A stretch of 64,000 bases of DNA, taken from assembly GCA_965221205.1 (NCBI GenBank), contig OZ244870.1, positions 1,374,782 through 1,438,781 on the forward strand, written 5' to 3'. Numbering within the stretch: position 1 is the first letter of the stretch; the number at the start of each line of letters is the position of its first letter. The position numbers were made by a program, and so were the translations under genes. The notes under the pieces were generated by a model. The model searched no databases, was not told the origin of the DNA, and worked only from the letters and a program-made list of their open reading frames with translations. Source of the DNA: a bacterium. Its GTDB lineage: Bacteria; SM23-31. Positions 8,002 to 51,807 of this stretch are shown in pieces.

Positions 8002-8821
8002 TTACCTTCGGTCGTTTGAAGCTTCTGTGCTGCCCGAGTCCTTTAACACTTTCCTGATAAAATACTCGTCAACCTGTGCCAATGCAGCGTGATAATCGAG
8101 TTCATCAAGGACCGAAGGAGGATTTTTCGAAACAATATAAGGAAACACTTCTGTTGATAGTTCATCCTGCGGAGACATCTCAAGCATTGATTTAATCACA
8201 TTTCTGAGTTCGTCTGAGTTCGGTTGTATTACCGGACCAGTCATAGGCAATCATAGATTGAAAAAGCTCGTCGGAGACAGATGGAATATCGTCAAGATTG
8301 AGACTGTCCACGGTTTTTCTCAAATAATAATCAAATAAAAGTGGTATATCGCTTTTTCTCTTACGGATGGGTGCTATTTCAATTTCAAATTGATTGATGA
8401 GAGAAAACAGATGGTGGTTAAATATCGCAGAATCTCTCAATCTCCGATTATCGCTCTCAGCAATAATCCGGACTCCCTGTGGTTTTTTCTGCGGTGAAAA
8501 TTCATACACCCGTTTTGTAACCGTGAGAAGATTAAAGAGCTGTATCTGTCGGGGAGCAGGAAGATGATCTGCTTTTTTTAGAAAGAGTGTTCCCTGCCAG
8601 GCACTATTAAAGATATTCTGAAATTGTTCTTCCGACCCATGTTCATCTTCAAGGCTAAGCTGAGAACAATCCAGATCAATGAACACATCGTGTTTTTTGA
8701 GGGTTTTCCGGTGAATCTCAAAAGCGGTGGTATCTTTTTTGGCGCCTTGTTCACCATATAGATTAACATGGAGCTTAGTTAGGGCTGTTTTGCGGATTCG
8801 TCGGCGGACATCACGCGTCAA
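8002..8821 (-). pseudogene. sigma-54-dependent transcriptional activator remnant (central AAA+ plus C-terminal region), disrupted by a 10-bp tandem duplication
   Basis: GEQGAKKD (a degenerate GESGTGKE Walker A), a DIPLLFDYYL-like segment, and YDWSGNTTELR followed in the other frame by NVIKSML (consensus YDWPGNVRELRNVIER). Removing one copy of tctgagttcg (8203-8222) restores YDWSGNTTELRNVIKSML. No receiver domain is present upstream. Confidence 0.55.
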
Positions 8822-8976
8822 AATGGATGGTTGCCGATTATTTTATGTTCATCGTGTGCCATAAGGGTACTTTTGAACAATAAGGTACGGCTTCATTCGT
8901 ATATTTCAAGTAAAAATGAAAATATTATACGAAATTTAAATATTTTTATTTATTAATTGAGGAAAAATTCTCAAGT

Positions 8977-9681
8977 ATGTTGATGACATCAGCGATTTTA
9001 CAGAAATTGAATCGTGTCCGCAATGCGGTCATTGAATACACCTATCCCGATGTATGTTTTGTATGTAATAACTATGCGGAAATGGCTACTATTTTAGTAT
9101 GTGGTAAATGCTGGGATAAGCTATTGCGCAACAGCAAATATACGGTGACAACCGGAGAAAAACACATTTCAGGTAAAAGATACTTCTCTTTTCTATCCTG
9201 GCGGTTTTCATATAACGACAAAGTCCGAAGACTCATTCATTATTTTAAATTTGATAATTATCTGTTTCTAGCAGACCGAATCGGTGAAGAAATGGCGGAT
9301 ACTGCAAATCACATTCTTGGATTACAGCTGGCAAACCTGATCGTTCCGGTACCTCTTCATCCTGCTCGTAAACGTGAACGTGGTTTCGATCAAAGCATGC
9401 TGCTTGCAGAGGTTGTTGCGCGGATTACAGAAATACCTCTTGAAGAAAGTCTGGAAAGAATAAAATATTCTCCTCCACAGGCCTCAATGAAAGAGAGCCG
9501 TGAGAAGGAAAGGAATGTCCGTGGAATTATCAAAGAAAAACAAAATAATTCCCTCAAAGGGAGGAGAGTCATACTTATCGATGATTTATTTACCACAGGT
9601 GCCACAGCGAATGAATGTAGCAAAATACTAAAAAAAGCCGGCGCATCGGAAGTAATGGTTTTAACTGCAGCATATGCATAA
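8977..9681 (+). CDS. comF: ComF-family phosphoribosyltransferase (competence protein ComFC-like)
   Basis: N-terminal Cys cluster (CFVC...CGKCW) and a C-terminal PRTase motif VILIDDLFTTGAT. Confidence 0.8.
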   Translation: MLMTSAILQKLNRVRNAVIEYTYPDVCFVCNNYAEMATILVCGKCWDKLLRNSKYTVTTGEKHISGKRYFSFLSWRFSYNDKVRRLIHYFKFDNYLFLADRIGEEMADTANHILGLQLANLIVPVPLHPARKRERGFDQSMLLAEVVARITEIPLEESLERIKYSPPQASMKESREKERNVRGIIKEKQNNSLKGRRVILIDDLFTTGATANECSKILKKAGASEVMVLTAAYA

Positions 9682-12107: not shown

Positions 12108-12115
12108 ATAAAGTT

Positions 12116-32150: not shown

Positions 32151-32153
32151 ATT

Positions 32154-33357: not shown

Positions 33358-33503
33358 CGGAGGTTCGTCAGATGGAGGATGCATTCCACCTCATCGAGGA
33401 AGATCTCATCTTGTGGTTGGCGATGTGCTGGGCGATCTCGAGATCACCGATTCGCTGCTGTCCCGACGCAGGTTGGACACGTGACTCCGCAACCGGATTA
33501 AGG

Positions 33504-35022
33504 AGCTAACACAATGAATAGAAAGTTTAAGAGATATGCAGAAAAGACCTACCCCCCCCCTCGAAAAATTAAATCTTCATTCAAGAACGATTTTCTGCCG
33601 CGATAATTTGCCGGTTCTGCGGGGCATTAACAGCAATTCCATAGACCTGATTTACTTAGACCCTCCGTGACCCTCCGTTTAATAAAGGACGTAATTTCCA
33701 TTTGCTCCTATTGGCACAACCGCAGAAGGGGCTGATTTCAGGGATATATGGTCGCCAGACGAAGTTAAGGACGAGTGGCATAATCAGATAAATGATCGCT
33801 TTCCCGAGTTATACAAATACCTCAATGCCGTTGGAGATATCGGAAGCAGGTCAGCAAAATATTATCTGATTTATATGGGGGTAAGGCTTATCGAGATGAA
33901 ACGAGTGTTGAAGGATACCGGAAGTCTGTATCTACATTGCGACCCGACCGTTTCGCATTATCTAAAATTGTTGTTGGATACAATTTTCGGACATGCGCAG
34001 TTCAGGTCCGAAATTTCATGGAAACGCACTTTTTCGCACAATGACAGTCGAACGTTTGGAAATGTTCGGGATGTAATTCTGTTTTACGGAAATTCGGACA
34101 TAAACACCGGTTCCGTTCGGGTTCCTTTGAATAACGAGTATGTCCAAAAATTCTATCGTTACGAAGATTCCGTAGGACGCTATGCGGCTATCGATTTAAC
34201 AGGGCAGGGACGTCGGTAGGGGAAAGTGGCAACCCGTGGAGAGGCATTAATCCTGGTGATGTGGGAAGGCAGTGGTCCGTTCCGTTGACAGGCAATTACG
34301 CCACGTGGATCGAGGAAAACATTATACCGGGATACAGATCTATCGGGAGGCCACAGGAACGACTGGACGCACTTGATAACGTTGGGATGATTCACCAATC
34401 CAGAACGGGACGGAGAGTACCGAGCCTCAAACGTTACCTCAAAGCCGCACAGGGTCAGGTTCCTTCTAACTCATGGGACGATATAAACGCTGTGCAGTCT
34501 CATTCCAAAGAACGCACCGGTTATCCTACGCAAAAACCACTTGCCCTGTTAGCGCGGATAATAAAAGCCAGTTCAAACCCGGGCGACATAGTGCTAGATC
34601 CGTTTTGTGGTTGTGCAACAACCTGTATTGCTGCTGAAAAACTTGAAAGGCAGTGGATTGGAATTGACGTTTCAAAAAAAGCATACGACTTGGTGATAGA
34701 GCGGCTTAAGAAGGAAGTTCCTCCAGACTTGTTCAGGGGAAAGCCTATTTTCAGAACGGATAGACCGACAAGAAACGATGTGCTCTATAAGAAAGTTCCG
34801 ACAAAGGAAGACAGGTTTTATCTATACGGAAAACAAAACGGCACGTGTTGCGGCTGCAATACCCAGTTTGAAATACAGCATCTTGAAATAGATCATATAG
34901 TTCCCCGTTCACAAGGTGGAGGTAGTGAGCGTGAAAACCTTCAACTACTCTGTGGTCATTGTAATCGTACAAAAGGCGACCGCCCAATGGAATATCTAAT
35001 GGCACGACTTAAAGTCGCTTAA
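33504..35022 (+). pseudogene. beta-class N4/N6 DNA methyltransferase (PF01555-like) fused to a C-terminal HNH endonuclease, with at least 4 disruptions
   Basis: RBS AAGGAG, then MNRKFKRYAEKTYPP and a C9 tract (33551-33559); one fewer C gives IFCRDNLPVLRGINSNSIDLIYLDPP. A 10-bp tandem duplication gaccctccgt (33659-33678) introduces a stop after DPP. Further along: KDTGSLYLHCD, TGYPTQKPLALLARII, FCGCATTCIAA, and HNH CCGCN...EIDHIVPRSQGG...LLCGHCNRTKGD. Confidence 0.6.
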
Positions 35023-35040
35023 ATCCTTTCATTAAAATAA

Positions 35041-35661: not shown

Positions 35662-35688
35662 AGATCAATTTATTCTATATAAGAAGTT

Positions 35689-36684
35689 GTGATAATGGCA
35701 GGGAATATGAGAAACTGTTTTCGATTCACATTACTTTTTTCAGCAGTGCTAAGCGTTTTCTTCGTGATAGTTGCTTGCAACGGTGGCACAATATCGGAAA
35801 GTGAACACGCAGCCGTTCCAGTCGAAACGGGATCGCTCGATGTGAAATGGATTCATGGTTCCGATCCGTGTTCCGGGAATACCGGTCCACAGTTTCAAGT
35901 GCACCGATATGCGGCAAACACCTATATACTCCGTCAGAACAAATGCGATTCTCGCCATGCACCATTCAGCTATTTGCTGTTTGGTGAGGAAAGAGCAATC
36001 CTTTTCGATACCGGTGCTGAGCTGGATTCAGGTGGAGGCAACAACGGATTGAAAAAAGTTGTGGAGGATATATTTGCTGAATGGAGTGCGGAACAGGGAA
36101 GAGCAATACCGCCGTTGACAGTGGCACATTATCATGGCCACTTCGACCATTTCTACGCCGATCCTGAGTTTAGAGCTGATGAAAATACAATTGTTGTCGG
36201 TACAGGCCCAGAAAATGTCGAGAAGTTTTTCGGTATTACCGATTGGCCTAATAAAACAGTTTTTTATGATCTCGGAAACCGGAGTTTGACCGTTATTCCA
36301 ATCCCCGGCCACACGGAAGACAGTATTACGATATACGATCCATGGACACACTTTCTGCTGACTGGTGATTCGGTCTATCCGGGAACGCTTTTTATTCCGG
36401 ACTGGATGTCATTCAAACAGAGTATCAACAAACTGGCTTCGTTTGCCAATGAGCATCCGATATCGTATATACTCGGCACCCATATTGAGATGACCACAAC
36501 ACCAGACCAGGATTATAGCGGAACCTATGAACCGAATGAACATGCGCTGCAACTCGGTGTTGAGCACCTTTGGGAACTGCGTGATTCACTCGAAGCGTTA
36601 GGTGATACGCCGATAAAAAAGATACACGATGATTTTATCATTTTCCCGCGCATATTTGACGAGGATGCATCCGGCCAAAATTAA
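35689..36684 (+). CDS. MBL-fold metallo-hydrolase, probable lipoprotein
   Basis: Signal peptide plus lipobox (VIVACNG). HYHGHFDH metallo-beta-lactamase motif. Confidence 0.7.
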   Translation: MIMAGNMRNCFRFTLLFSAVLSVFFVIVACNGGTISESEHAAVPVETGSLDVKWIHGSDPCSGNTGPQFQVHRYAANTYILRQNKCDSRHAPFSYLLFGEERAILFDTGAELDSGGGNNGLKKVVEDIFAEWSAEQGRAIPPLTVAHYHGHFDHFYADPEFRADENTIVVGTGPENVEKFFGITDWPNKTVFYDLGNRSLTVIPIPGHTEDSITIYDPWTHFLLTGDSVYPGTLFIPDWMSFKQSINKLASFANEHPISYILGTHIEMTTTPDQDYSGTYEPNEHALQLGVEHLWELRDSLEALGDTPIKKIHDDFIIFPRIFDEDASGQN

Positions 36685-37020
36685 TTAAGTAAAAAATGAC
36701 TATAATCCAGGTTGTATGTTATTTCATTTTTGTGTATCTTTGAGATGTGAAAGCGGTAATGCCGGGGTGGTGAAATTGGTAGACGCGCTGGACTCAAAAT
36801 CCAGTAGGCTTCGGTCCGTGAGGGTTCGAGTTCCTCCCTCGGCACTGTAGTAAAAACAAGGACTTACAAGGATTGTTTATGAGTCCTATAAATGTCTGAA
36901 GATTTTACTCCCACCGCTATTCCCACCATAAAGCACATGTTTTGAGTGGCTTCATTAAATTAATTTGGTCTATTTATAGGATGATTTTGATGTGACCATT
37001 GCCCGACGTACCATTTCATT
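36648..37020 (+). repeat. direct repeat copy 1 (MBL 3' end + tRNA-Leu + ~180 bp downstream)
   Basis: About 85-90% identical to 39851-40213 by eye. Shared strings: cgcatatttgacgaggatgcatccgg, tgtgtatctttgagatgtgaaagcggtaatgccggggtggtgaaattggtagacgcgctggactcaaaatccagt, cgacgtaccatttcat. Confidence 0.8.
36761..36844 (+). tRNA. tRNA-Leu (anticodon CAA), copy 1; weak variable arm, possibly degenerate
   Basis: Acceptor stem GCCGGGG/CCTCGGC, D-arm TGGTGAAATTGGTAGAC, anticodon loop CTCAAAA, long variable arm, T-loop TTCGAGT. Confidence 0.7.
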
Positions 37021-37623: not shown

Positions 37624-39297
37624 CTAATTTTTGGAGGGGATCGGCTGGTCGCCCCAGTGGCGTTGTGCATCCAAGATGATCTGTTCGTATCTGGTGCGCG
37701 CTACTTCGTAGTTCGCCAGTACCTCCTGTTGAGCGGCGGTGGATGGAAAGCGATCCGGTTGAGAACGGGCGATATCGGCCAGTATTTGAGTCCAGCGTAG
37801 CATGTAGGTTGCATCTTGGGCAAACGCTGTCGGCTTTTCATCTACCGATAGATAAACCGGGCTGGTGTGTGCTTGGCGGAGTAAGCCGTCCGGGGCCCGA
37901 TAGAGCGCGCGGGCGGCAATCCAGCCGCTTCTTTTCGGATACAGTTCGTAGGTTAGCGTCTGTCGTAAGATCGGTGCAGGTTTTTGATCGAGCAGGCTCA
38001 GCGAGGCAACGACGCGACCGTTGTGAACGAGTTGGAGCGATTCCAACGCTTCAATCGAACGCAGGGTTGCAATGAATTGAATGGGGCTGGTGTCCGATGA
38101 CGTTCTGGAGATCATTGTTCCCGGGCCCTGGCTGTCAGCATCCAGGGTCAGCATGGGCCCCGTGGTGACGAAGGAACGTCCGGCCTTGATCGAGTCCCAC
38201 ATTTTCTCTGCCGTCAACGGTCCGTTAATTCTGGCATAGACGCGGTTATGGCCGGTCGGTACCGGCATCACGCCGATGGCCGAGCCGCCGGAGACGCCTA
38301 GGCGAAAGCCGCAATTCAAGAAGCGGTAATACAGATTGTTCGTGCGATGGAACAAACCGTCGCCGACAGCAGCATTGGACTCACCCGCCGACAGCGGTCC
38401 GATCATGCCCCAGCCACCCACCAAGGTTGACCTGCGATGGTAGTGGTTGTGGCAGACTTGAATGGTGTTGAGCACCCCCAGCGCCGCACCGATGACGGTC
38501 TCTGCCCATGATGGTTTGTCGCTGTCGAATACAACGCCCGGTGACTGGGTTCGCGCGGTTCGGCAAAGCGCGGCGTCAGTGGGAAAATGCTCCCCGAATT
38601 GCTTGGTGGTGATGGGGCTGTCCAGGTTGAACAGAAATGTCGCGCCGATAGTCCAGCCGGGTGCGGCGTTGCGATCGATGCGTTCGATTTCGATGTTGTT
38701 TCGCGTGATGAGGTGGCGGTCGTCGATGACGATCGGCGCTGTGTAGGTTTCATCCGGCCACGTTGCGTGCCACGATTCCTCCCGTCCTCGCAGCCAGTAG
38801 GTGAATGCCGGCACGAGATGCACGTCGTCGGCCAGCGCCAGTTGTTGAAGGATGTGAGGATTGTTCTGTCCCAGATGCACGTGCAGATCGGCTGAATACC
38901 AGCCTTCGGACGGCAAATCGATCCAGCGCTTCAGCTGAATGGTATTCTCGATCGTTTCGCCGGCTTTCAGGGTGAATGCAAGGTCTACCGGAGTGTATTC
39001 TTTCCCTTTTTCAACATGCACCACCGCATTTCCGGCCGGCACCTCCATTGTGAAAACGCCATCGCAGCTAAAGCTTTGATCTTCGGCGTAGACCGTCGCC
39101 GTCTGCGGCGCTATTGGTTGGAAAAAACGCTGGCTGTCAACATCGATCCATGCGCGAGCCGGGGTTGTATTACCGCTTTCGTCGACAATCCGGATTGAGA
39201 TGCGGGCCAGTATCTTGAACGGATCGGATTGACCGCATGTAACAAGGATAGAGCAGCAAAATAAAATCGCAAATAGTAATGAGGACAATTTATTCAC
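37624..39297 (-). CDS. CehA/McbA-like PHP-domain metallophosphoesterase, lipoprotein, GC-rich
   Basis: Signal peptide plus lipobox LVTCGQS, a carboxypeptidase-regulatory-like N-terminal domain, and a DLHVHLGQ PHP motif. GC content is far above background. Confidence 0.5.
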   Translation of the reverse strand: MNKLSSLLFAILFCCSILVTCGQSDPFKILARISIRIVDESGNTTPARAWIDVDSQRFFQPIAPQTATVYAEDQSFSCDGVFTMEVPAGNAVVHVEKGKEYTPVDLAFTLKAGETIENTIQLKRWIDLPSEGWYSADLHVHLGQNNPHILQQLALADDVHLVPAFTYWLRGREESWHATWPDETYTAPIVIDDRHLITRNNIEIERIDRNAAPGWTIGATFLFNLDSPITTKQFGEHFPTDAALCRTARTQSPGVVFDSDKPSWAETVIGAALGVLNTIQVCHNHYHRRSTLVGGWGMIGPLSAGESNAAVGDGLFHRTNNLYYRFLNCGFRLGVSGGSAIGVMPVPTGHNRVYARINGPLTAEKMWDSIKAGRSFVTTGPMLTLDADSQGPGTMISRTSSDTSPIQFIATLRSIEALESLQLVHNGRVVASLSLLDQKPAPILRQTLTYELYPKRSGWIAARALYRAPDGLLRQAHTSPVYLSVDEKPTAFAQDATYMLRWTQILADIARSQPDRFPSTAAQQEVLANYEVARTRYEQIILDAQRHWGDQPIPSKN

Positions 39298-39850
39298 TAA
39301 AATTTCCTCCTTTAAGTGTATGATAGAAATTATCAGAAAAATTTATTGCTTGAACATTGGCTAACGTGACTCAATATGTTGTAAATTAAAAAACAGACCT
39401 GAACTTTGACAACATTTTGATATTGATAATTTTGTGCCACGAAATCCCATGATACTTCTTTTATGGACAGGCAACTGTGTTGTGCCTGTTATTGCATCGA
39501 GTATCAGGAAGTACTTGGATCATTAGATATCATTAGAATTATAAAGATTAATCTAAAATACTGACCATATCAAACCACAAACAACCAATTGCTCATCAAA
39601 TTATGTCTTAGTGACTTTAGTTGGAGAAATGAGGCTGAAGATAGATTAATTTATGAGAATATAAGAGATAAATTTTGAAAACACAACCCTTCAAAAATAA
39701 TTTATGCACCATCACTAACGGGTAGTTGGGAAACCATACTACCTTACGCGGCAATAGCCACACCATCAGTTTATAAAGTCGATAGCCGGCAATTCGTTGT
39801 GGTTGTCGCAGGCGGCGGCAAAGGCCTATACTCAGCACCTCAACCTTCCG

Positions 39851-40213
39851 GCGCATATTTGACGAGGATGCATCCGGCAAAAATTAATCAAGTAAAAAAT
39901 GACTATAATCCGGGTTGCATGTTATTTCATTTTTGTGTATCTTTGAGATGTGAAAGCGGTAATGCCGGGGTGGTGAAATTGGTAGACGCGCTGGACTCAA
40001 AATCCAGTGGGAGCAATCCCGTGAGGGTTCGAGTCCCTCCTCCGGCACTATAATAAAAAAGGACCTATAATGTTGAATTGTAAGTCCTTGTTTGTGTCCA
40101 ATATTTTATTCCCACCATAAAGTACATATTTTAAGTAGTTTCATTGAATCCTATTGATCAATCTTAATTTGTATGACACTGGTGTGAGTATTTCACGACG
40201 TACCATTTCATCC
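39851..40213 (+). repeat. direct repeat copy 2
   Basis: See copy 1. Confidence 0.8.
39964..40047 (+). tRNA. tRNA-Leu (anticodon CAA), copy 2; canonical variable arm and T-stem
   Basis: Same acceptor stem, D-arm and anticodon arm as copy 1. The variable arm gggagcaatccc pairs cleanly. T-stem GAGGG/CCCTC. Confidence 0.8.
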
Positions 40214-40359
40214 AATGAGGATGATTACTTAATGCCATTTTTTGAAATGATGGATAATTTAGATAGGATATTAAAGCAGGATATAGTAAACAATGCACAG
40301 ATTTTTTAATTCGACATGAGTATCATATCTAATTTGAGAATGATCAGCAAATAAATTAC

Positions 40360-42231
40360 TTATATCCAGCCCAAAATAACTTCATTCCCAAAATCTTTTA
40401 TTACTTTTAACCCCGCCTGTTCTATGCTCTCAGGAGTCCAATTTGGCATATCTGTTTCGTCAAGCAAATCCAAATGAACAATAAATATATTCACATTATA
40501 TGATTTGAGTGTTTCCTGACTAGCAGGATCAAGAATAGTATTAATACATGAAGTTATCTCTCTATAAGTTTCAGGAAAAAAAGTTGAATACCCATTGATG
40601 ATGGGCTTATTGTGATAAGTGGTATAGTAAAAATATTTTACCTCTCGCTGCGTAAATTCATGCCGCCGCTCTCCGTAAACCGGATCATACTTGGTTCCAT
40701 CTCCCTTTCTTGCTGGAACTTCAGCAACACCTCCATTTATCTCTTGGTCCTTTAACCAATGATACACCTCGGGCACATTATCGCCCGTTTGAATCAGATG
40801 CATCGGGAAGGGAAACGCCAAATATTCCATAATAACCAGACAGACAATGATAGGTGTAATCCATTTCTTTATAGGGTGCACTTTAAACCGGTCGAACAAA
40901 TAGTAAATACCTCCGATACTCAATATTGATGCTGCAAATAGCACTATGATCCCAAAACGTGCAGGTACACGCATAACATCAAAGGCGGGTAAAATGTAAT
41001 ACATCAATAAGTATGGCAGAGGAAGATAGAGAAAATGCCCAAATAACGTTAAGAATGGTCCAAAGGAAAGTATTAAGAATACAATCAATATCCAAAGAAA
41101 TGGTTTTTTGTACACAGCAATACCTGGATTCATTGATTCAGAAAAATAAAAAATACCCAAGATCATACATGTTATAAGGACAAATCCAAGATAGAGAGGG
41201 TTCCCTCCTGTACTATTAATAATGGAGGAAAAGCGCTCAAATGGAAGCTTTTCTTTAATGGTGTCACCGGGTAACTTGTCTGCTCCCAGATTTCTTGCTT
41301 GTTCCCCCAATAAGGGAAGTGCCATCTCAAAGACTCTGCGTTCCAGAGGTAGTTCACCAAAGAACGGTTTTTCTGACTGGAAACCACCCATTAGCATATT
41401 ATTGTCTGGAGCACGGAAATAATCATCAAGACTGGCGGAATATTGAAGGTTTTCGCCAAGCGATTTTTTCATTCCACCTTGAGATGTAATTGTGTTATAA
41501 TAATAAGCAAACGTGCCGACGACTATCAGGATCAACGCTATACCGGGAACAGCTTTAAAAGCCATCTTTTTAAGATCAATGGTTTTTCTTTCTTTCAAAA
41601 AGCATATTACAGTATAACATAAAATTGCTAGAGAGAGCATATAACCGATATACCAACTCGAAAGCATCTGCAGACAGTATACAATCGCTGCAAATATGAA
41701 AAATTTTGCTTTCTTTTCTTTCAGAAATTTATCGAAAAATAAAAAAAAGAGTGGGATCCAGTAGATCATATGTATGTGGAAAGTAAAAGCTTCTTTTAAT
41801 GGAGAAAAGCCGTAAAACAAACCTGCAATGAAGCTTATGGAGTAATTTTTAGATATATGAAAAGCAAAGAGAAACATGAACAGTGCTGATAGGAAGTATG
41901 AAAATAATATTAGTACATTTGTTGCAAGAATCGGATTACCGGTAAAATAAAATACTGGTGCAAAAAAAATCTGATGACCAACCAGGATATCATTGAGCGC
42001 GCTCTGAGTCTGAGGGTAAAAAATATTGATATCAAAAATGTTATTGCCCGGTTCAAGAAAAATATTATGGTAATTCCAGTAAAGGATTGAAGCATTGCCG
42101 ACAGGATCACCATTGCTATAAGAGATACTCGATGCGAAAGATACTATTAGAGGATACGTTAGAATTATTGCAAGTAAAAAATATATAGCAGCACAAACGA
42201 CAAAATGCTTACAACTCTCAATCTTTATCAT
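40360..42231 (-). CDS. polytopic membrane protein, GT-C-type glycosyltransferase-like (PMT_2/ArnT/YfhO-like)
   Basis: 623 aa with more than 12 predicted TM helices and large loops. Located in a sugar-modification gene context. Confidence 0.45.
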   Translation of the reverse strand: MIKIESCKHFVVCAAIYFLLAIILTYPLIVSFASSISYSNGDPVGNASILYWNYHNIFLEPGNNIFDINIFYPQTQSALNDILVGHQIFFAPVFYFTGNPILATNVLILFSYFLSALFMFLFAFHISKNYSISFIAGLFYGFSPLKEAFTFHIHMIYWIPLFFLFFDKFLKEKKAKFFIFAAIVYCLQMLSSWYIGYMLSLAILCYTVICFLKERKTIDLKKMAFKAVPGIALILIVVGTFAYYYNTITSQGGMKKSLGENLQYSASLDDYFRAPDNNMLMGGFQSEKPFFGELPLERRVFEMALPLLGEQARNLGADKLPGDTIKEKLPFERFSSIINSTGGNPLYLGFVLITCMILGIFYFSESMNPGIAVYKKPFLWILIVFLILSFGPFLTLFGHFLYLPLPYLLMYYILPAFDVMRVPARFGIIVLFAASILSIGGIYYLFDRFKVHPIKKWITPIIVCLVIMEYLAFPFPMHLIQTGDNVPEVYHWLKDQEINGGVAEVPARKGDGTKYDPVYGERRHEFTQREVKYFYYTTYHNKPIINGYSTFFPETYREITSCINTILDPASQETLKSYNVNIFIVHLDLLDETDMPNWTPESIEQAGLKVIKDFGNEVILGWI

Positions 42232-43254
42232 CAGGTTCCTTGTTTTAGTTTTGAAAAGAAATTGAGTTAAATATCAAAAAAAATTCAGGAATAGTCAAAT
42301 GAAAAAGTCCTATATGAATTCTGTTGAAATGTCTTTTCATTAGAAAATTATTCAAATAATAAATGATAATAAGACAAGATGAAAAGAGTTTTTCTTGCGG
42401 ATTCTACATTTGATTTTGCACACAGTTGATTCAGGATTCGTCTTTGGACTCTTACTCTTTATTAGCCCAGGTTGTTCGAGTGTGCAGATTCAGGCATTAA
42501 TCAGTAACAATTTGTTTGATAACTCCTTTTGGTTTACTATTACATTACTTCACTCAAATGACATTACTGTCGCTTCGTATTGTAACTATTATTACCTTGA
42601 ATATTCTGAACCGATAAAGTGTAACTATTGTTACAACGATAACAGCACTTACGATCAAATTCGTAACGAATGACCTTTACTTAACCATGCTTTTATTTTG
42701 ATTTAAAAGTTAATATATAGAAAATTATGCTTATTTTATACCTGTAGTCTATATAATAACTGATCAATATTTGAATACAATATATTAGCAAAGATATTAA
42801 GATGTCCTTTGCCATTAATTTTCTAAGAAACTTGTCAAGAGATAAAAAAAGCGGCGTCCATTAAATAGACATAAGTTGTATCAAACTATTAACGATTCTG
42901 AATGGCGAGAAACCAATAATGAATCTCATGATAAAGCTGGTCTTATCATTTTTGATCAAGTATAGGGTAGAAGTGAATATGAAAACTGCTGACAATATTC
43001 ACGAGAAAAAGATTACCTCAATTGTCGAAAGTACCTGTTATTTGCGATCTAAAAAGACGGCTCGATTATAAGTACACAAATAAGAATATAACTTAGAATC
43101 GCAAAAAATTTTGAGAATTAAATGTGGAAATCAAAAAATTTAGATAAGCTGTTATTTGTGTTCGAAAAATTTCAAAAAAGTACACTGGTTATAGCAAGTG
43201 GGTCACCAACATCTCCACATCTGCTTCCTGTGCTCTGTAAAATATAATATTATA

Positions 43255-44958
43255 TCATTTTTTTGAAACGATAAAATCCTCAAACAGGATGTAATCTGCA
43301 TTTTGAATTAAAAGACTTTTTATAGCATCTTCAGGAGAGCATACAATAGGTTCTTCATGATTATTAAAACTAGTATTTATTAATGTCGGAATACCTGTCA
43401 AATTATAATATTCCAGTAACAAATCGTAATAGAGCCGATTGAAATCACTATTGACAATTTGCGGTCTTGCAGTATTGTCCACGTGAACTATACCGGGAGT
43501 TTCCTTGTTCGCCCTCTCTGTGCAAACATAACACAGAGTCATAAAATAACTTGCTAAGTGCTCCTTTTTCCATCCGACGTAATATTCATGAGCATATTCT
43601 TCAAGGGTAATCGGAGCGAATGGCATGAATTCAGTTCGATTTAATCTTTTATTTAATATTTTTGTAATATCTTTATCTGTCGCCCTAACGATAATACTTC
43701 TAGCTCCAAGAGCTCTGGGACCGTATTCCATTCTTCCCTTGAAAATTCCGACATATTTACCATCTGAAATATCTTTTGCCACCAGTTTAAGAGTATAATC
43801 ATTCAAGGATGTAATGTTCAATTCTGTATTGTACCTATTCAGAACTTCACTTATTTCTGATTTTGAATATTTTGGACCTAAATAAACATGCTTTAAAGGA
43901 TATTTTATACTCCCACCGTTTTCGTAAAGTTTTATTAATGCACCTCCTAAAGCATTACCTCCATCACCCATTTGAGGAAATACATATATATTATCCACAT
44001 CTTCCAATTCATAGATTTTTTGATTTAACTTTACATTTCCAAACAAGCCACCAGCAACACAAATATTTCGGAGTCCGGTTTCGGCTATGAATTTTGATAG
44101 GTATTTAAGAGTAATATCTTCCGTTACATACTGTACTGCTGCTGAGATATCTTCTTTACTGAATTTATCCAACTCCTTTTCAATGTTTGGGAGTTTATTT
44201 GTAGGAAAGGGCGAAAATTTTTCCCCTATATTAGCGATTATTTTACCTTCTTTGTAATCAATCATAGATGTAATGATATCAACACACTTCGTATGGTCTC
44301 CGTATGCGGCAAGTCCAGTTACCTTACCTTCATGCTTATTTGGTGTAAATCCCAAGTAATTTGTAATATAGGCATATAAACTTCCTAAACTATTATACAT
44401 GCTCACGGAATCCAATAATTCAATGCCATCTTTACGAGATGCTGAACAAACCGTAGCACTTTTAAAATCTCCGCGTTGATCGATTGTTAAAACTAACGCA
44501 TCCTCAAACGGAGAGGGGTAAAAAGCTGTAAAGGCATGAGAAAGATGGTGGTCATAAAAGCTGATTTTTTCCTCTGGAAAACCAATTTTGACAACTTGTT
44601 CAATTAATTCCTTCTTAAATCTATGGTCACGCTCGACAGCAACTCTTGTACGGTCACTGAGGAGTTTTTCCGCAGTTGAATCATTCAATATCGCTTTTAG
44701 GACATCATCCATGCACTGGGGCAAGAATTTCTCATCGATACCTTTCCAGGCTCCACAAGCAACAAAATCTATGTCCTCCGGCTTAAGCGAACTGTTTTCC
44801 AAGCAATATTCTATTGATTTTCTTGGAAATGACCGATCGTTTTTGACTCTGGTAAAACGCTCTTCATTTACACTTGAAACAATCTCGCTATCGATAATTA
44901 TAGAAGCACCGCTTACCTGGGCGTTGCATACTCCAAGTATTATAGTATTATTTTTCAT
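43255..44958 (-). CDS. carbamoyltransferase (NodU/CmcH family)
   Basis: 567 aa with an N-terminal ASKHA-like fold (ILGVCNAQVSGASII..VNEERFTR) and a C-terminal YrdC-like carbamoyltransferase domain. Confidence 0.75.
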   Translation of the reverse strand: MKNNTIILGVCNAQVSGASIIIDSEIVSSVNEERFTRVKNDRSFPRKSIEYCLENSSLKPEDIDFVACGAWKGIDEKFLPQCMDDVLKAILNDSTAEKLLSDRTRVAVERDHRFKKELIEQVVKIGFPEEKISFYDHHLSHAFTAFYPSPFEDALVLTIDQRGDFKSATVCSASRKDGIELLDSVSMYNSLGSLYAYITNYLGFTPNKHEGKVTGLAAYGDHTKCVDIITSMIDYKEGKIIANIGEKFSPFPTNKLPNIEKELDKFSKEDISAAVQYVTEDITLKYLSKFIAETGLRNICVAGGLFGNVKLNQKIYELEDVDNIYVFPQMGDGGNALGGALIKLYENGGSIKYPLKHVYLGPKYSKSEISEVLNRYNTELNITSLNDYTLKLVAKDISDGKYVGIFKGRMEYGPRALGARSIIVRATDKDITKILNKRLNRTEFMPFAPITLEEYAHEYYVGWKKEHLASYFMTLCYVCTERANKETPGIVHVDNTARPQIVNSDFNRLYYDLLLEYYNLTGIPTLINTSFNNHEEPIVCSPEDAIKSLLIQNADYILFEDFIVSKK

Positions 44959-45051
44959 GTTTTTCCAAATAAATTTGTTTGTTCAGTTATAGTTAATAAT
45001 ATTCACTCTTATTATGAGAATCTGTAACATTTTCCTTGAGGATATATTTTG

Positions 45052-46464
45052 TTATACAAACAAAGGTGACTCCTCACTTAACGGTTTATCCAATTCTGGT
45101 TTTGGTTTACCTGAAGAAATATAATCGGCTATGGTAAAACCCATTTCAAGTGCTTGAAACATTTGAATATATGTAAAAAGTGCCTGTCTACCACCAGAAT
45201 AAAGATTTTCTATTTTGTTGAGGTACTGATAAATGTTTATAAGTTGTTCTTCATAGTCAATTGTCGGAATTGGATAACCAAATTTTGTTCGCAAAACAAT
45301 ACCACTACTATAGACTCTCTTAATATCGTAGCCTTCATTTTCTAAACCTGTCAATACTTTTTCTATAATTTCCTCATCAGTTAATGACCATATTTCATCC
45401 TCTGGAAAACAGGTTATCTCTGCCGTAAGGGCGCATTTCCCTTTAGGAGCTGATTCTTGAGAAAAATAATTCATCTGTCCTACTCTATTGAAAATCTGTT
45501 GGTGAAAATACATGTATTCAGCCCCTAAGATTGAATTGGTATTTACAACAATGCAGGCAATTAAAATCGCACGATATCTTAAACTATTCACTGCCTTTAA
45601 AATGTTTTCAGGTGGATGAGGTTCTATAGAATTTAGCAACGTAGTGACAGGAATTGTTGAGATACATATGTCGGATGACATGCTGATTTCAGATCCATTA
45701 ATATCAACAATAACTTCTTTAACTTTGTTTTTATTGATAATAATTTTCTTTACAGAGTGATTAAGCAAAGTTGTTCCGTAATTTTTTGTAATTAATTTAT
45801 CTATCCTCATTGGAAAAGTTCCTGACCCTTGAATAGGGTAATATTGGGATGTTACATAATTGTCCTTTGTCAATTTGTTTTTTTCTCTACCGAATAAATC
45901 AATAATCGAATTGACAGCTAACTGGATCAAAGTTCTATTGGGAATTCTGTGTTTTAAAAAAGCATTGCTTAAATCCTTTGGATGTATACCCCATACTTTT
46001 TGAGTATATTTCTCAAAAAATAGTTCATACAATTTTCGACCATAAAGCGAAATATAAAATTCTTCTAAACTGCCTACTATTAGTGAATTGTCCTTTATAA
46101 TTAGATTTTGTGTGTAGCTAAGTAGAGCAGATAAAATCGTGGATATGTTTAGATTTGCAAGTAAATTTATTGGCTTGATCGGATAGGATAACTTTTTATT
46201 TTGAAAAGTAATCATCACATTTTTTGTTAATTCATTGATATCACCATCCATAACTTCCATAAAGAAATCAAGAAACTCTTTGCTTCTTGCATGAAAAGTG
46301 TGTGGACCAAAATCAAAAAAACAGTCATTAAAGCGAAATGAAGCTGCCAATCCTCCGATATAATTCTGTTTCTCAATAATTGTAAGATCTGTTTCTTTTC
46401 CAGCAAGTTTAATTCCTGCACCCAGCCCCGCAAGGCCCGCACCTAATATAGTTATCTTCTTCAT
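45052..46464 (-). CDS. FAD-dependent oxidoreductase (amine-oxidase / UDP-galactopyranose-mutase superfamily)
   Basis: ILGAGLAGLGAG dinucleotide-binding motif and GGLAAS...GPHTFH. Confidence 0.6.
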   Translation of the reverse strand: MKKITILGAGLAGLGAGIKLAGKETDLTIIEKQNYIGGLAASFRFNDCFFDFGPHTFHARSKEFLDFFMEVMDGDINELTKNVMITFQNKKLSYPIKPINLLANLNISTILSALLSYTQNLIIKDNSLIVGSLEEFYISLYGRKLYELFFEKYTQKVWGIHPKDLSNAFLKHRIPNRTLIQLAVNSIIDLFGREKNKLTKDNYVTSQYYPIQGSGTFPMRIDKLITKNYGTTLLNHSVKKIIINKNKVKEVIVDINGSEISMSSDICISTIPVTTLLNSIEPHPPENILKAVNSLRYRAILIACIVVNTNSILGAEYMYFHQQIFNRVGQMNYFSQESAPKGKCALTAEITCFPEDEIWSLTDEEIIEKVLTGLENEGYDIKRVYSSGIVLRTKFGYPIPTIDYEEQLINIYQYLNKIENLYSGGRQALFTYIQMFQALEMGFTIADYISSGKPKPELDKPLSEESPLFV

Positions 46465-46484
46465 TTAAATATTGTTCACTTTCG

Positions 46485-47609
46485 TTATAAAGATCTTAAA
46501 ACGGCAATCACATAATCTTGTTCTTCAGTAGTCAAACCGGGATAAAGTGGCAGTGCAATTGTCTGTATTGTCGCTTTTTCTGTTTCAGGTAGATTTAAAT
46601 CTCGGTATTCTTCACAATATGCGAGTTCTTTATGAATAGACTGGATTCCTCGCTTTGCGTTAATTCCTTTGTTGTTAAGACATAAAAGTATCTCATTTCT
46701 GCTCAGTGTGGAATCGTTTTTTACCCGCACCAAATACGATTGATAATTTGGATCGCAATTATGCGGCACCTGCGGTATGATGAAAATTTTTGAACCTTTC
46801 AGCGCAGCATCATACCGTTCTGCTAATTCACAACGTTTTCTGATTATTTCATCAAGTTTATCCATCTGTTGAACGCCTATGGCAGACTGCATATCGGTTA
46901 TCCTGTAGTTATAACCTCTTTTCACATAATCCTCAAACAGAATTGTTTCGGATGTGTGGCGCTCTTGCGGTTGAACAGACATACCATGGTTTCGGAGAAG
47001 TATTAATGTTTTATACATTTTTTCATCATTCGTCAGCACTGCGCCACCCTCGCCTGTTGTAATTATTTTTCGCGGATGAAAACTGAAACAGCATAAATGC
47101 TCCGAGTTCCCTATTTGCTTCCCTTTATACTTAGCACCGAGGGCACACGCAGCGTCTTCAATAACTATTAGTCCATGCTTTTTTGCAATCACTGAAATCG
47201 CATCTATATCGGCAGGCATACCGACCTGATGAACCGGCATTATTGCTTTTGTTGCAGGTGTAATTGCGTTTTCAATATGTTGAGGATCGATGTTGTATGT
47301 AGATGGATCGATATCAACAAATACAGGTCGTGCACCAGTATGAACAATGGCATTAGCAGTTGCAATAAATGAAAAAGATGGTAATACTACCTCATCTCCA
47401 GGCACAATACCATGAACCGTTAAAGCAAGATGTAAAGCAGTTGTACCCGAAGATACTGCAACCGCATGATTAACTCCCGTATAAGCAGTTAAACGATCTT
47501 CAAATTTTTTTGTCTCGTTTCCTTGAGCTAACCATCCGCTGTTAATAATATTTTTGACGGACTCCGCCTCTGTTCCGTCGAAATATGGCTTTGTGATAGG
47601 AATGTTCAA
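46485..47609 (-). CDS. DegT/DnrJ/EryC1/StrS-family PLP-dependent sugar aminotransferase
   Basis: 374 aa of typical DegT-family sequence with the active-site Lys region SFHPRKIITTGEGG. Confidence 0.85.
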   Translation of the reverse strand: MNIPITKPYFDGTEAESVKNIINSGWLAQGNETKKFEDRLTAYTGVNHAVAVSSGTTALHLALTVHGIVPGDEVVLPSFSFIATANAIVHTGARPVFVDIDPSTYNIDPQHIENAITPATKAIMPVHQVGMPADIDAISVIAKKHGLIVIEDAACALGAKYKGKQIGNSEHLCCFSFHPRKIITTGEGGAVLTNDEKMYKTLILLRNHGMSVQPQERHTSETILFEDYVKRGYNYRITDMQSAIGVQQMDKLDEIIRKRCELAERYDAALKGSKIFIIPQVPHNCDPNYQSYLVRVKNDSTLSRNEILLCLNNKGINAKRGIQSIHKELAYCEEYRDLNLPETEKATIQTIALPLYPGLTTEEQDYVIAVLRSL

Positions 47610-47634
47610 GAAAAGTCCGAAAAGTCATTAATTA

Positions 47635-48618
47635 CTATAATATGTTTTTATACCAATCGATAGTCTTTTTAAGTCCTTCTTCAAGTGCAACTTTGGGACT
47701 ATATTCGAGCATCTGTTGAGCTTTTGATATATCAGGTACACGAAGTTGAACATCGATACCCATATGGTCATTAAATTCAATCTCTGAATCGGATTCGAGA
47801 TAATTAATAATTTTCTTAGCCAATTCAAAAATAGTAACCGTTGCCTGTGGATTACCGATATTGAATGAGTTACCTGTAATTTTAACGGAACAAATACTAC
47901 TTTCAACAGCATCTACAAAATCATCGATATAACACCAAGATCTGATCTGGACACCGTCTCCCGTTATTACAACATTTTCATTTGCAAGCGCATTGTTGGT
48001 AAATATCTGGATTGCGCCCTCTCCAACCTGACCGGGCCCATAAATATTGAATGGCCGCATTGCAACCATTGGAATTTTTTTCTCAAGAAAGAAGCAATAA
48101 CAGAGCTTCTCAGCCGCAAGTTTACTGATAGAATACGTCCATCGAGCATCTTTTATATCACCTTGGATGGTTTCTCCATGTTCAGATGCTCGAAAGATAT
48201 GTGGACCATAAATCTCACTTGTGGAGAAATATATTAACAACTCAAGATCGATCTCTTTAAGAATACTGAGTAGATTAAAGGTACCGATCATATTAACTTC
48301 CATGGTCTTAAGTGGCATCTTGTAATAAGAAGAAACACCAGCTATTGCTGCGGCGTGGATAACAATGTCAACATTCTTAATTGATTTCTTCAAATGTTCC
48401 ACATCAAGAATATCACCTTCGATAACAGTCACATTCTCATGGTCTTTACAGTCAAAATATTGTAATGCGTTCCGGTGTCTGTTGTCATATAGTATGACCT
48501 TATTATCTTTGTGAAACCGCTCGCAGAGTGCGGTGCCAATAAATCCTGCGCCTCCGGTAATGAAAATCACTTTATCTTTCACTTTCACGATGCTGGCCCT
48601 CTCTTCTTTAACTATCAA
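47635..48618 (-). CDS. NAD-dependent sugar epimerase/dehydratase (SDR extended family)
   Basis: TGGAGFIG Rossmann motif and YxxxK (YSISK). Confidence 0.85.
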   Translation of the reverse strand: MIVKEERASIVKVKDKVIFITGGAGFIGTALCERFHKDNKVILYDNRHRNALQYFDCKDHENVTVIEGDILDVEHLKKSIKNVDIVIHAAAIAGVSSYYKMPLKTMEVNMIGTFNLLSILKEIDLELLIYFSTSEIYGPHIFRASEHGETIQGDIKDARWTYSISKLAAEKLCYCFFLEKKIPMVAMRPFNIYGPGQVGEGAIQIFTNNALANENVVITGDGVQIRSWCYIDDFVDAVESSICSVKITGNSFNIGNPQATVTIFELAKKIINYLESDSEIEFNDHMGIDVQLRVPDISKAQQMLEYSPKVALEEGLKKTIDWYKNIL

Positions 48619-49251
48619 TGATCATTTCCGCAAAGAGTATACTAAAATCATGATGTTTAACTATCGGATTTACACTTGCTGCTCTTTAGATTTGAAACAA
48701 TGAGTCCAATTGATTAATATAACGAATATTCAAGCAATCTACAAAAATTATTTCTCTTGCTAAATTCGCTGGAGAATATTGGTCTCGAATACAAAAAACT
48801 AGCAGCTTGACCGCAGATTGTCGTTTATTTGGTTTTTGTCGTAAACTTTTTTTATTCTGACTGAAAAATCTGCTGAACGAAAAAGTTTTAAGAACTCCAT
48901 CTGCTATTATAGCCAGTCGACATGTCATTCAACGAACACGAAGACCAATATTTATTATTTTGTGACCATGAGCAGGCAATTGCCACCGAACGTGGAGTCG
49001 AGTATTTATATCCGCCACAAAAGGAGCTTATTCTCATTAAATAAATTCGCAAATCGTACAGTCTGGAGAACAGAAAATTCTTTGAAAAGCTAAATGAATC
49101 CTTTAATTTCAACTTATAGTGTCCGACTTGTTCTGACGACATACATCATATTTCTTGCACACTCCCAATTATTCTCTTTCAGAAGTTTAATATGGGGAAT
49201 ATCAGATAAATCAAATAATAATAACACTTCAAAGAAAACTTTGGAGGAGGA

Positions 49252-51807
49252 GTGTTTATGTGCATAAATAGCAAAATATTTGTTGCGTTCAGAATTCTTT
49301 TTATTCCCGTATTGCTCTCAATTTTTGTGATAAATGTTTTTGCCCAGAGAGGAGCTGGAACCAGTGTGTCATTAGAATATGATACCACATCACCGCAGTT
49401 ATCCTTCGCAGCCGGAGAGAGATCGGTAGAACACTTGAACACCCGGGATATTCCATCCTAATGGATAGTGCTGACACAAGAATCGCGCTGACTACCGATT
49501 CGCGGTTTTTGCAGCCTCAACATTACCGGATCCGTTACGAGCAGTCGGATGTTCTTCGTGTAACTGGTGGCGATGCGGTGAGTACGATGTACGGAGGCGT
49601 GGAACTTGAGGAGATGCTTCAGCTTGGCACGGATCTATCCGACATTCCGCAACGCGAAGGCAAACCGTTTATTCTCAAAAAAGGTCTCAAATTCAATATG
49701 CTCTTCGATACCCGGGTACCGAGTTATGACGATACTGGCGATGCCGCTCAAAAGAATATTGTGGAAATGTGGAATTTCGATTTCTGGCGGGAATTCCTGG
49801 ACGACATGGCTCGACACCGGTATAACTTTTTGACTCTCTGGTCGACCAATCTCTATCCCACACTTGTGAAGTTGGAGAACTATCCTGATGTAGCCTATGA
49901 TGACGTGAGCGTCCTCGATTTCCCGATTGATAACGAAACCCATTCGCACTGGACCAACACTGCCTGCAGCGACTATGACATTATGGATCCCGCCAGTCGC
50001 GTGTGGTCAAGAGCATAACCATTGATGAAAAAATCGCTTTCTGGCAGCGTGTCATGCAGTATGCCGCCGACCGAGGCATTGATATTTATTTTTTTCCTGG
50101 AATATCTTTATGTGGAACGCACTTGATAAATACGGGATTGATAATCGGCAAGATAATCAAAAAACCGTGGCATACCTGCGGGAGAGTGTTAAAGAGTTGC
50201 TCCTGACGTATCCTCTCCTCAAAGGGATCGGTGTGTCGACCGGCGAGAACATGGACCGGAGACTGACGGGGGAGTATAGCAATGAGAACTGGATTTGGAA
50301 GACGTACGGTTTTGGGGGTTATGGATGCCAAGGCCGTTCAGCCCGACCGGCATGTGCGTTTCATTTTCCGCCAACTCGATTGCACTTTAGCGAATATTGA
50401 CACGGCTTTCGAAGAATACACGGATGTGCTTGAGACGAGTTTTAAATATTCGCGCGCCCGGATCTATACAACCACTAATCCACAATTCTTCGATCAAGGG
50501 TATCGCGACGACGTTGAACAGTACCAAATAAAGTTCTGGATAAATCTTCGGAACGACGATATTTTCGTCCATTGCTGGGGTAATCCCGAACATGTGAGGA
50601 AATTTCTGGACAATCTACCCCACGATGTAATGGCCGGGTTTTACATGGGGTCGGACGGATATGTGTGGGCACGGGAATTTATTAGTCTCGATTCCGAGCA
50701 GTTCCGCCAATTTGAAATTCGGAAACACTGGTACAATTTCATGCTATTGGGTCGTCTTGCTTACGATCTCACCCTGGGCCGCACCTTTTTCGAAGACAAA
50801 CTGGTTGATCAATTCCCCGGTGTCGATGCATCGCTGCTGTACGATACCTGGAAGACTTCATCCGAGATCATTCCACAGCTCAACCGTTTCTATTGGTTCG
50901 GGAATGATAGACAATGGTCCCCGGAAGCTAGTCTCGATATGCATAATAAATTTCACAGCGTCAATCGATTCATCGATTATAGGCGGAGTGATGACAGCAT
51001 TCTTCCGAACCAGTTTGGCAGTCTGACATTCAGGCAATATGTGGAATCCATTACCTCCGGTACAGACATCTCTGGTGTGACTCCACTCCAAGTTGCCTTG
51101 AATCTGGATCCGTTTCGCCGAGCAGGCGCTTGCAGGTGTTTCTACCCTCAGGAAGACAAGAATAATTCCAAAGAACTTGAGCAGACCTTTACAGATATCG
51201 AATCGATGTTCCACCTTGGGCAATATTATGCCGACAAAATCCGTGGAGCCGTGGAACTGGCACTTTTTCGTATTACCAATGATCACACAGCAGCGACAGG
51301 CAGTTCGAGCACTGGAAGCAGCGGTTGACACATTGGAAATCATACGCCACTGCCGCCAGCAATCAGTATAAGCCGCAACTGCTTGCTACAACACAGCAGC
51401 TTGACTGGTGGAAGATCATGGAAGATGTCGAAATGGACGTCATTATTGCAAAAGAGAACATTCAGCTTTGGTCTGGGGCTCCTCTATTAAGATCTCTTGA
51501 AACTGAATTTCAACCGAAATGGGAAGAATTAAAAGATACATTGACTAAAAATAAAATCGAAGAATTTGCTATCGATATAGAAAAGCTTGGCATAGAATAT
51601 AGATATTTCCAATTAACGCAATGGGGAAAGAAACTTGCAGCTCAGGCAGGTAGAGGTCCGACATTGATGCCATGTCGAAAACTCTGGAGAGGTTTCCGAA
51701 TCCGATCAAGGAACATCAAGGAACTTAAAGACAAAAGGTATGCCGAATACATCCGCGGTATGATCAGGAATAATGTGTTTTTCTTCTGGAAAATCTATAT
51801 ATTTTAA
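49252..51807 (+). pseudogene. secreted glycoside-hydrolase-like gene with at least 5 frameshifts
   Basis: A signal-peptide ORF (49252-49461) followed by consecutive ORFs in shifting frames: 49461-50018, 50003-50206, 50110-50400, 50282-51328, 51325-51807. The frame change at 50087-50094 falls in a T8 run and the one near 50310 in a G5 run. GC content is higher than background. Confidence 0.45.
51634..51735 (+). repeat. direct repeat copy A (3' end of the GH pseudogene), containing the 10-bp tandem duplication atcaaggaac x2
   Basis: Matches 51873-51963, except for the extra 10 bp at 51715-51724 and a few substitutions. Confidence 0.8.

Follow-up and report, generated by a model that had tools for sequence, protein, structure and literature searches.

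Short tandem duplications in bacteria usually arise by replication slippage. Short direct repeats are also left by transposition, with target-site duplications of about 8-13 bp for the IS4 and ISAs1 families according to ISfinder and of 3-5 bp for IS3 elements. To our knowledge, tandem target-site-duplication footprints remaining after excision are not an established phenomenon in bacteria. Fill-in at staggered double-strand breaks is a further known process, found in bacterial Ku/LigD end joining and in the offset paired-nick duplications of genome editing. The window analyzed here, a stretch of 64,000 nucleotides, belongs to an uncultivated bacterium represented by a 3.4-Mb circular MAG. In it, three perfect 10-bp tandem duplications were found at disrupted loci. 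On balance, we favor the view that these are genuine, independent and recent insertions in dispensable or decaying genes, made by a microhomology-free process that would operate throughout the clade, probably by fill-in, and that their shared length is a modest coincidence or a modal stagger.

Tandem duplications in the window and beyond

An earlier note on this DNA had reported the three duplications and the absence of microhomology beside them, and both points hold. Two copies of TCTGAGTTCG occupy 8203-8222 (site 1), two of GACCCTCCGT 33659-33678 (site 2) and two of ATCAAGGAAC 51705-51724 (site 3); all are perfect, and at none of them does the period-10 match run extend beyond 10 bases. Counting perfect tandem repeats with primitive units over the whole window gave two at a unit length (k) of 8, none at k = 9, four at k = 10 and none at k = 11-30. 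The window and both extensions together comprise 82,987 bp of the lineage, in which five repeats with k = 10 were observed against 0.125 expected, a number reached by 0 of 200 second-order Markov shuffles. Counts for the other values of k from 7 to 20 were at chance level in the same sequence, and perfect tandem repeats of 9 or 11-20 bp were absent from these 83 kb. The empirical background for k = 10 was two in 616 kb of unrelated bacterial loci, or about 0.2 per 64 kb. Tolerating one mismatch brought no extra excess of 10-bp repeats, so that the over-representation is confined to perfect copies. Older, decayed 10-bp duplications were likewise rejected, as no length was in excess when one or two mismatches were allowed. 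Perfect tandem repeats of at least 10 bp numbered about 4 in the 83 kb of this lineage, against about 3 in 175 kb from clade relatives and about 13 in 616 kb from unrelated loci, and the overall repeat rate is thus not clearly elevated, in what is a small sample of about 83 kb from a 3.4-Mb genome. Rfam and tRNA scans returned two tRNA-Leu genes only, and no match at the duplication sites.

The fourth 10-bp repeat in the window (59775-59796, plus strand; AAAATTCAAC in 2.2 copies, with a match run of 12) was not listed in the earlier note. It encodes KNSTKFNN in the frame of an intact 421-aa LarA-like (Lar_N) gene, whose product aligns without gaps over these residues with seven homologues and shares them with the sister protein P0001, and removing one copy breaks the ORF. 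This repeat is native coding sequence with a chance similarity, not an insertion. The fifth lies outside the window, in the extensions, and is flanked by a 4-nt CGGA repeat. Only one sister sequence (L062) covers it. That sequence is 72% identical there and about 10 nt shorter, which is suggestive of, but not conclusive for, a derived insertion.

The three loci and their sister-species counterparts

Site 1 lies in a decaying gene for a regulator with a sigma-54 interaction domain (8005..8842, minus strand; Pfam Sigma54_activat and AAA_lid_14), which the duplication frameshifts. When one copy of the unit was deleted in silico, the ORF grew from 216 to 276 codons. A second lesion, a 17-bp deletion at about 8030, affects the HTH-coding part. 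Both sister genomes, L009 (about 94% nucleotide identity) and L008, have a single copy at the position of site 1. The L008 orthologue is intact, with 306 aa and an HTH_8 domain. In L009, the gene is broken into pieces of 201 and 126 aa by a 19-bp tandem duplication, also perfect but of separate origin, about 90 bp from the position of site 1. Different duplications have inactivated this sigma-54-type regulator in two sister species, in independent events.

At site 2, the duplication falls within the codons of motif IV (L-D-P-P-F) of a DNA methyltransferase and creates a TGA stop directly after DPP. The host is a pseudogene of an N6/N4 methyltransferase-HNH fusion (33518..35022, plus strand), recognized by three-frame translation and by Pfam matches on fragments. 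It carries three lesions, namely the 10-bp duplication, a C run at about 33690-33700 shortened by 1 nt, and a further frameshift at about 34215. Removing one copy and mending one 1-nt frameshift gave an unbroken match to positions 1-126 of PF01555 (N6_N4_Mtase). A look-up (S21) for the sister-species state at this site gave the same species alone, and the orthologue of the CehA-like protein (P0123) sits in a non-syntenic locus.

The ORF that carries site 3, in its 3' tail, is small and lies downstream of a fragmented gene without a Pfam match. A single copy is present in the sister-species loci L055 and L054 (about 98% nucleotide identity), and the duplication alters the tail of the ORF, which has 129 aa here versus 111 aa in the sister. 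The earlier note had pointed to a nearby paralogous copy without the extra 10 bp. We confirmed its existence and shifted its position from 51873-51963 to 51872-51962 (plus strand). The sister species lack this 91-bp dispersed copy of the segment 51634-51734, and no direct repeat flanks it; it is about 94% identical to the upstream copy, and likewise to the sister's single copy.

Together, the single copies in sister species (sites 1 and 3) and the split DPPF motif (site 2) identify all three as derived insertions. Chance similarity is ruled out for them by the shuffles, the empirical control and the sister-species alignments, in keeping with the original description of insertion-type events. 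The host genes all carry further lesions, and the loci are indeed disrupted. A reversible phase-variation switch was also considered and rejected; copy number did not differ among the window, a second-sample assembly (ERZ25067264) and the Logan contigs, and the host genes bear additional inactivating lesions.

The earlier note had further proposed an artefact of assembly or polishing; with sequencing errors included, this alternative would mean that the extra 10 bp are not in the DNA at all. The contig names (ctgNNN_34x_c) do suggest a single long-read metagenome pipeline for most assemblies. Nevertheless, the Logan contigs of run ERR13605531, a separate k-mer assembly, show 100% identity to the window throughout sites 1-3, and ERZ25067264, a separately assembled 3.42-Mb ENA contig from a second sample, carries every duplication, although about 17 SNPs and two 2-bp indels set it apart from the window. 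Sister-species assemblies with contigs named in the same style have no duplication at sites 1 and 3, and an analogous 14-bp duplication in a sister occurs in three assemblies, one of them with another naming style (contig_66). Polishing errors at fixed consensus-window boundaries do not fit either, as the site spacings (25456, 18046 and 8070 bp) share no factor beyond 2 and independent assemblies agree. An artefact is hence hardly credible, the frameshifts are biological, and long-read metagenome assemblies appear trustworthy at this scale.

Origin of the duplications

Perfect tandem duplications of 6, 14 and 19 bp, also devoid of microhomology, were found in the sister lineages. Extra flanking match was zero in 6 out of 6 tandem duplications of at least 6 bp, i.e. 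sites 1-3 and the three sister events, as judged from alignments for sites 1 and 3 and the sister events and from match-run length for site 2. About half of the non-tandem indels in the same alignments show 1-7 nt of microhomology. Six zeros out of six are slightly below chance expectation (0.56^6 = 0.03), which we count against the explanation we favor. The sister lengths show that, in the clade as a whole, the process is not confined to 10 bp, and the short duplications of this clade, lacking microhomology, point to an origin in break repair rather than in slippage.

Under the favored explanation, the 10-, 10- and 10-bp events here and the 6-, 14- and 19-bp events in sisters would form one clade-wide class of microhomology-independent duplications, each insertion here repeating the neighboring 10 bp exactly, head to tail, and shifting the frame of a gene already dispensable or decaying. 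Most likely, two nicks, one per strand and separated by about one helical turn or more, would open a break with 5' overhangs; the overhangs would then be filled in and the blunt ends rejoined, doubling the stretch between the nicks. This is the geometry of a target-site duplication and would require no mobile element. As expected of end joining with fill-in, the six events are perfect, free of microhomology and of varying length (6, 10, 10, 10, 14 and 19 bp). Such scars would show only in pseudogenes and non-coding DNA, which tolerate a frameshift, and all three sites would lie at disrupted loci because frameshift scars survive only in dispensable DNA. The identical length may be a modest coincidence or reflect a modal stagger of about 10 bp, rather than the signature of one element. 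Against this stands that three, possibly four, derived events are all exactly 10 bp and that no event of 9 or 11-20 bp is seen across 83 kb. The earlier note considered such identity unlikely to be random. It is mildly improbable, with p of about 0.015-0.05 for all events having the same length under a rough empirical length distribution gathered here, and the argument from it is weaker than it looks, the length also having been picked after the fact because it was striking. At that value, a process specific to 10 bp stays in contention.

Slippage or template switching, in which the nascent strand re-pairs 10 nt upstream and copies 10 nt twice, clearly has its place in these genomes: tandem duplications of 2-3 bp are common between the lineages and even between strains, several deletions have 3-7 nt of microhomology, and the CGGA repeat beside the fifth 10-bp repeat is what slippage predicts. 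However, re-pairing of a 3' end should leave a flanking direct repeat of at least a few bases, and none is seen on either side of the 10-bp events of sites 1-3 or of those of 6, 14 and 19 bp, which makes slippage a rather unlikely source. The three duplications could instead be excision footprints of a cut-and-paste transposon with 10-bp target-site duplications (IS4/ISAs1-like, as the earlier note suggested, or a MITE), whose insertion duplicates 10 bp and whose flush excision, followed by rejoining of the donor ends, leaves tandem copies. Perfect, microhomology-free copies are the expected product of flush excision and blunt rejoining, the undisturbed single-copy state is found in sister species, and the length is the same at three sites that are unrelated, and perhaps at a fourth beyond the window. 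The sister lineages nonetheless bear scars of this type that measure 6, 14 and 19 bp, beyond the reach of one element. Among the genes called across the 83 kb from this lineage, none has a transposase or integrase Pfam match, and only IS3-type elements (HTH_Tnp_1 and rve) were found, in distant relatives. Nor did any assembly contain an occupied site; L009, L008, L055 and L054 are single-copy and empty, and L001-L006 have the tandem duplication. By eye, no motif is shared among TCTGAGTTCG, GACCCTCCGT and ATCAAGGAAC and their flanks, and no consensus emerges from the targets, three being a small number for a verdict on target preference or symmetry. For 83 kb, of which only a small fraction is neutral, to hold three or four footprints without a surviving copy nearby, the element would have to have been very active and to have since vanished. 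Of the larger indels between the window and the sisters (62-478 bp), considered as MITE or IS insertions, none has 10-bp terminal direct repeats; several look like deletions between 3-7-nt repeats, and one of 91 bp is a copy of nearby sequence. Literature searches on 10-bp tandem duplications and bacterial excision footprints found nothing relevant, and a full-text search for excision footprints with insertion sequences yielded papers on eukaryotic transposons alone. The transposon proposal is therefore unsupported, and we hold it to be decidedly unlikely.

Another possibility, without any transposon, is a nuclease or recombinase peculiar to this lineage that cuts at a fixed 10-nt stagger, e.g. 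a guided or restriction-type nuclease cleaving its own genome, with the ends then filled in and rejoined. It would fit the lack of microhomology and the exclusive 10 bp of this lineage versus the 14 and 19 bp of sisters. Yet no candidate enzyme was found, the flanks have no common motif, and three or four events make a weak statistical case, so that we rate it very unlikely. A CasX-type cleavage with a 10-nt stagger was rejected at site 1, where inspection by eye of either strand showed no TTCN 12-14 nt from the duplication. Taken more broadly, the proposition that this lineage alone has or had an activity cutting its chromosome with a fixed 10-nt 5' stagger, be it a flush-excising element or an element-free nuclease, is unlikely. 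If true, perfect 10-bp tandem footprints would be expected genome-wide; they would amount to an excision or cleavage scar of the eukaryotic type, which is not established for bacteria, and from them past transposition or self-cleavage could be read. The duplications would be notable in this respect, as traces in a bacterium of either transposon excision or a nuclease with a fixed stagger, only if the 10-bp spike were sharp, lineage-specific and genome-wide.

Comparison with known systems

The target-site duplications of DDE transposons (IS4, ISAs1) and footprints of the eukaryotic style resemble the present duplications in being perfect direct repeats of fixed length, made by a staggered cut and fill-in. 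They differ in that there was no sign here of an element, of terminal inverted repeats, of a transposase or of an occupied site, and in that related lineages show other lengths. Fill-in at staggered breaks shares with our favored explanation an exact duplication of the stretch between offset nicks, the lack of microhomology and a length that varies with the offset. The likeness is one of outcome alone. Spontaneous short tandem-duplication frameshifts in bacterial pseudogenes are alike in consisting of a perfect head-to-tail copy that shifts the frame, in being retained only in dispensable genes, and in being accompanied by 1-2-bp indels and deletions in the same genes; the classical ones are flanked by short direct repeats, owing to their origin by slippage, whereas those described here are not. 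The finding provides a clean example of how lesions build up in the pseudogenes of an uncultivated bacterium.

Perfect 10-bp tandem repeats and their status as insertions

By scanning the window for perfect tandem repeats of primitive units, we found two repeats with a unit of 8 bp, none of 9 bp, four of 10 bp and none of 11-30 bp. Three of the 10-bp repeats are the duplications described in the earlier note, whose sequences and positions were confirmed, namely TCTGAGTTCG x2 at 8203-8222 (site 1), GACCCTCCGT x2 at 33659-33678 (site 2) and ATCAAGGAAC x2 at 51705-51724 (site 3). At all three the run of period-10 matches is exactly 10 bases long and the unit shares zero bases with either flank, in keeping with the absence of microhomology noticed before. 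No excess was seen at any length in the window when one or two mismatches were allowed, so the over-representation is limited to perfect copies. Over 82,987 bp of the same lineage (the window plus 9.3 kb to its left and 9.7 kb to its right), five 10-bp repeats were observed against 0.125 expected, a number reached by none of 200 second-order Markov shuffles. The other lengths between 7 and 20 were at chance level. Unrelated bacterial loci (616 kb) held 26, 2, 5 and 4 perfect repeats with units of 9, 10, 11 and 12 bp, respectively, and one each of 13 and 18 bp.

Polarity was judged from relatives found by searching a genome collection with the Lon protease, i.e. a sister species (L009, OZ252239.1; ~94% nucleotide identity to the window) and a more distant relative (L008, OZ251221.1; ~70%), both of which have a single copy at site 1. 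A closer sister, represented by three assemblies (L054, L055 and L056), is ~98% identical to the window over 50.3-64 kb, and the two assemblies aligned across site 3 (L054 and L055) have a single copy there. The site 2 duplication falls on the L-D-P-P-F codons (motif IV of an N6/N4 DNA methyltransferase) and produces a TGA stop straight after DPP; with one copy removed and a neighboring 1-nt frameshift mended, the translation matches Pfam PF01555 positions 1-126 unbroken. The single-copy sisters at sites 1 and 3, and the interrupted methyltransferase motif at site 2, show that all three are derived insertions, as the earlier note had concluded for site 3.

The duplications are also present in other assemblies. 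A separate k-mer assembly, built from run ERR13605531, yields four Logan contigs that match the window at 100% identity over 4659-29795, 33467-36745 and 40282-55724, thereby covering sites 1, 2 and 3. All duplications recur in ERZ25067264 ctg836592_34x_c, a circular 3.42-Mb contig of the same species; over 61 kb it shows ~17 SNPs and two 2-bp indels relative to the window. Together, these contradict the earlier alternative that the extra 10 bp arose in assembly or polishing, which is ruled out at the assembly level and thus highly improbable. The two indels that set the window apart from this 99.97%-identical contig are tandem duplications (ACAC for AC and GAGA for GA, at window positions 33159-33160 and 55798-55799), and are either very recent frameshifts or leftover consensus errors; the former cuts a Schlafen/AlbA_2 gene from 370 to 352 aa.

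The fourth repeat in the window, AAAATTCAAC at 59775-59796, was rejected as an insertion. It encodes KNSTKFNN in frame within an intact 421-aa LarA-like gene, alignment with seven homologues shows no gap in the region, these residues are shared by the sister protein, and the ORF breaks when one copy is removed. The gene is absent from the L009-type genome (L062 18475-21510), where just ~330 bp separate PFK from 6-phosphogluconate dehydrogenase. A fifth repeat, CGGACAATTA x2.4, is intergenic, with an amidohydrolase gene on one side and a LamG-domain gene on the other, ~6 kb past the window's right end (locus L058, 3609-3632). It differs from the others in its flanking 4-nt CGGA repeat, and (A)CGGA motifs at 10-bp spacing surround it. 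A distant sister is ~10 nt shorter there, in a region of only 72% identity. The fifth repeat might represent one more derived 10-bp duplication, the fourth, or else a series of sites bound by a regulator.

Decay of the host genes

The host genes of all three insertions are already decaying. Site 1 lies in a sigma-54-interaction-domain regulator (8005-8842, minus strand), whose HTH-coding part carries a 17-bp deletion as well. The regulator is intact in L008 (306 aa, with HTH_8), while in L009 a perfect 19-bp tandem duplication (L009 7696-7733, equivalent to window ~8293) splits it into 201 and 126 aa. This event is independent, ~90 bp from site 1, and the regulator is thus inactivated in parallel in two lineages. 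The methyltransferase-HNH gene (33518-35022) carries two further frameshifts in addition to site 2. Site 3 falls in the tail of a small ORF downstream of a fragmented gene without a Pfam match, in which the sister carries a 146-bp deletion.

The methyltransferase-HNH gene belongs to a defence-type cluster (29775-36684) with an AAA_23/SMC-like ATPase, the Schlafen/AlbA_2 protein (with an HATPase_c_4 match), an aromatic-lyase fragment and a metallo-beta-lactamase-fold protein. Several members are fragmentary, and the cluster may therefore be a decaying defence island. Elsewhere, different glycoside-hydrolase genes are broken in 99.7%-identical strains: a 1-nt indel interrupts GH95 in one, and a 77-bp deletion splits an alpha-L-fucosidase in the other (L058 5947-8378 vs L059 5946-8378; L059 129-1467 vs L058 53-1468). 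Judging from these, gene decay appears rapid and strain-specific.

Mobile elements and the indel spectrum

No called gene in the 83 kb of the window lineage matched a transposase or integrase Pfam domain. The only insertion sequences seen in the clade are of the IS3 type (HTH_Tnp_1 plus rve), in distant relatives, and the IS3 family makes 3-5-bp duplications.

A tRNA-Leu(CAA) gene (36761-36845 and 39964-40048) is duplicated with its flanks 3.2 kb apart (36643-36915 and 39846-40116; ~276 bp, ~87% identity overall and 96% across the first 166 nt), bracketing a 557-aa CehA/McbA-like metallohydrolase gene (37624-39297, minus strand), and resembles an old hot spot for integration or duplication at a tRNA gene. 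Directly past the second copy, ~10 kb (40215-50276) is replaced by just ~142 bp in the sister L055. It encodes a 623-aa protein without a Pfam match, a carbamoyltransferase, an amine-oxidase-like protein, a DegT aminotransferase and an epimerase, and has the appearance of a glycan-modification island lacking an integrase.

In alignments of the window to L009 (16 kb) and L055 (13.5 kb), the perfect tandem duplications measured 2, 2, 2, 10 and 10 bp in the window lineage and 3, 6, 14 and 19 bp in the sister lineages, the 14-bp one in three sister assemblies; the two 2-bp duplications described above even differ between strains at 99.97% identity. Every duplication of at least 6 bp had zero extra flanking match. 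Of the non-tandem indels, about half showed microhomology of 1-7 nt; the rest had none. A 91-bp insertion (51872-51962) that the sister species lacks copies a segment 238 bp upstream at ~94% identity, with neither direct repeat nor microhomology at its flanks. It looks like a templated, dispersed duplication, with divergence exceeding that between the species.

Origin of the duplications

The three insertions are thus real, recent and lineage-specific 10-bp tandem duplications, free of microhomology and located in dispensable genes, and the sister lineages bear the same type of scar at other lengths. For perfect tandem repeats of at least 10 bp, the count is ~4 in 83 kb of this lineage, as against ~3 in 175 kb of the relatives and ~13 in 616 kb of unrelated loci; the overall rate is not clearly elevated, leaving equality of length as the sole striking feature. 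The earlier argument that identical lengths are unlikely to be random carries less weight than it might seem to: under a rough length distribution pooled from the controls, all events share one length with p ~0.05 (three events) or 0.015 (four), values uncorrected for the finding having been chosen because it is striking.

We consider ordinary mutation somewhat better than an even bet. Slippage is an unlikely route even if visible microhomology is not demanded, since it needs 3'-end re-pairing and flanking repeats are therefore expected, which the insertions lack. The simplest mechanism would then be a break at offset nicks. Such nicks would leave 5' overhangs, and filling these in and rejoining the ends would duplicate the sequence between the nicks. 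The proposal that the duplications are footprints of an excised element with 10-bp target-site duplications (e.g. IS4/ISAs1-like) would account for the common length, but it is rather improbable given the lack of transposase or integrase matches among the called genes of the 83 kb and of any recovered locus in which an element separates the copies. Another nuclease, specific for 10 bp, is a poor candidate as well.

Two points are of minor interest, namely that microhomology is lacking and that the same regulator became inactive in parallel in two sister species. The proposed nick and fill-in route shares its geometry with target-site duplication while requiring no transposon, and short tandem duplications are already known to cause frameshifts in pseudogenes.
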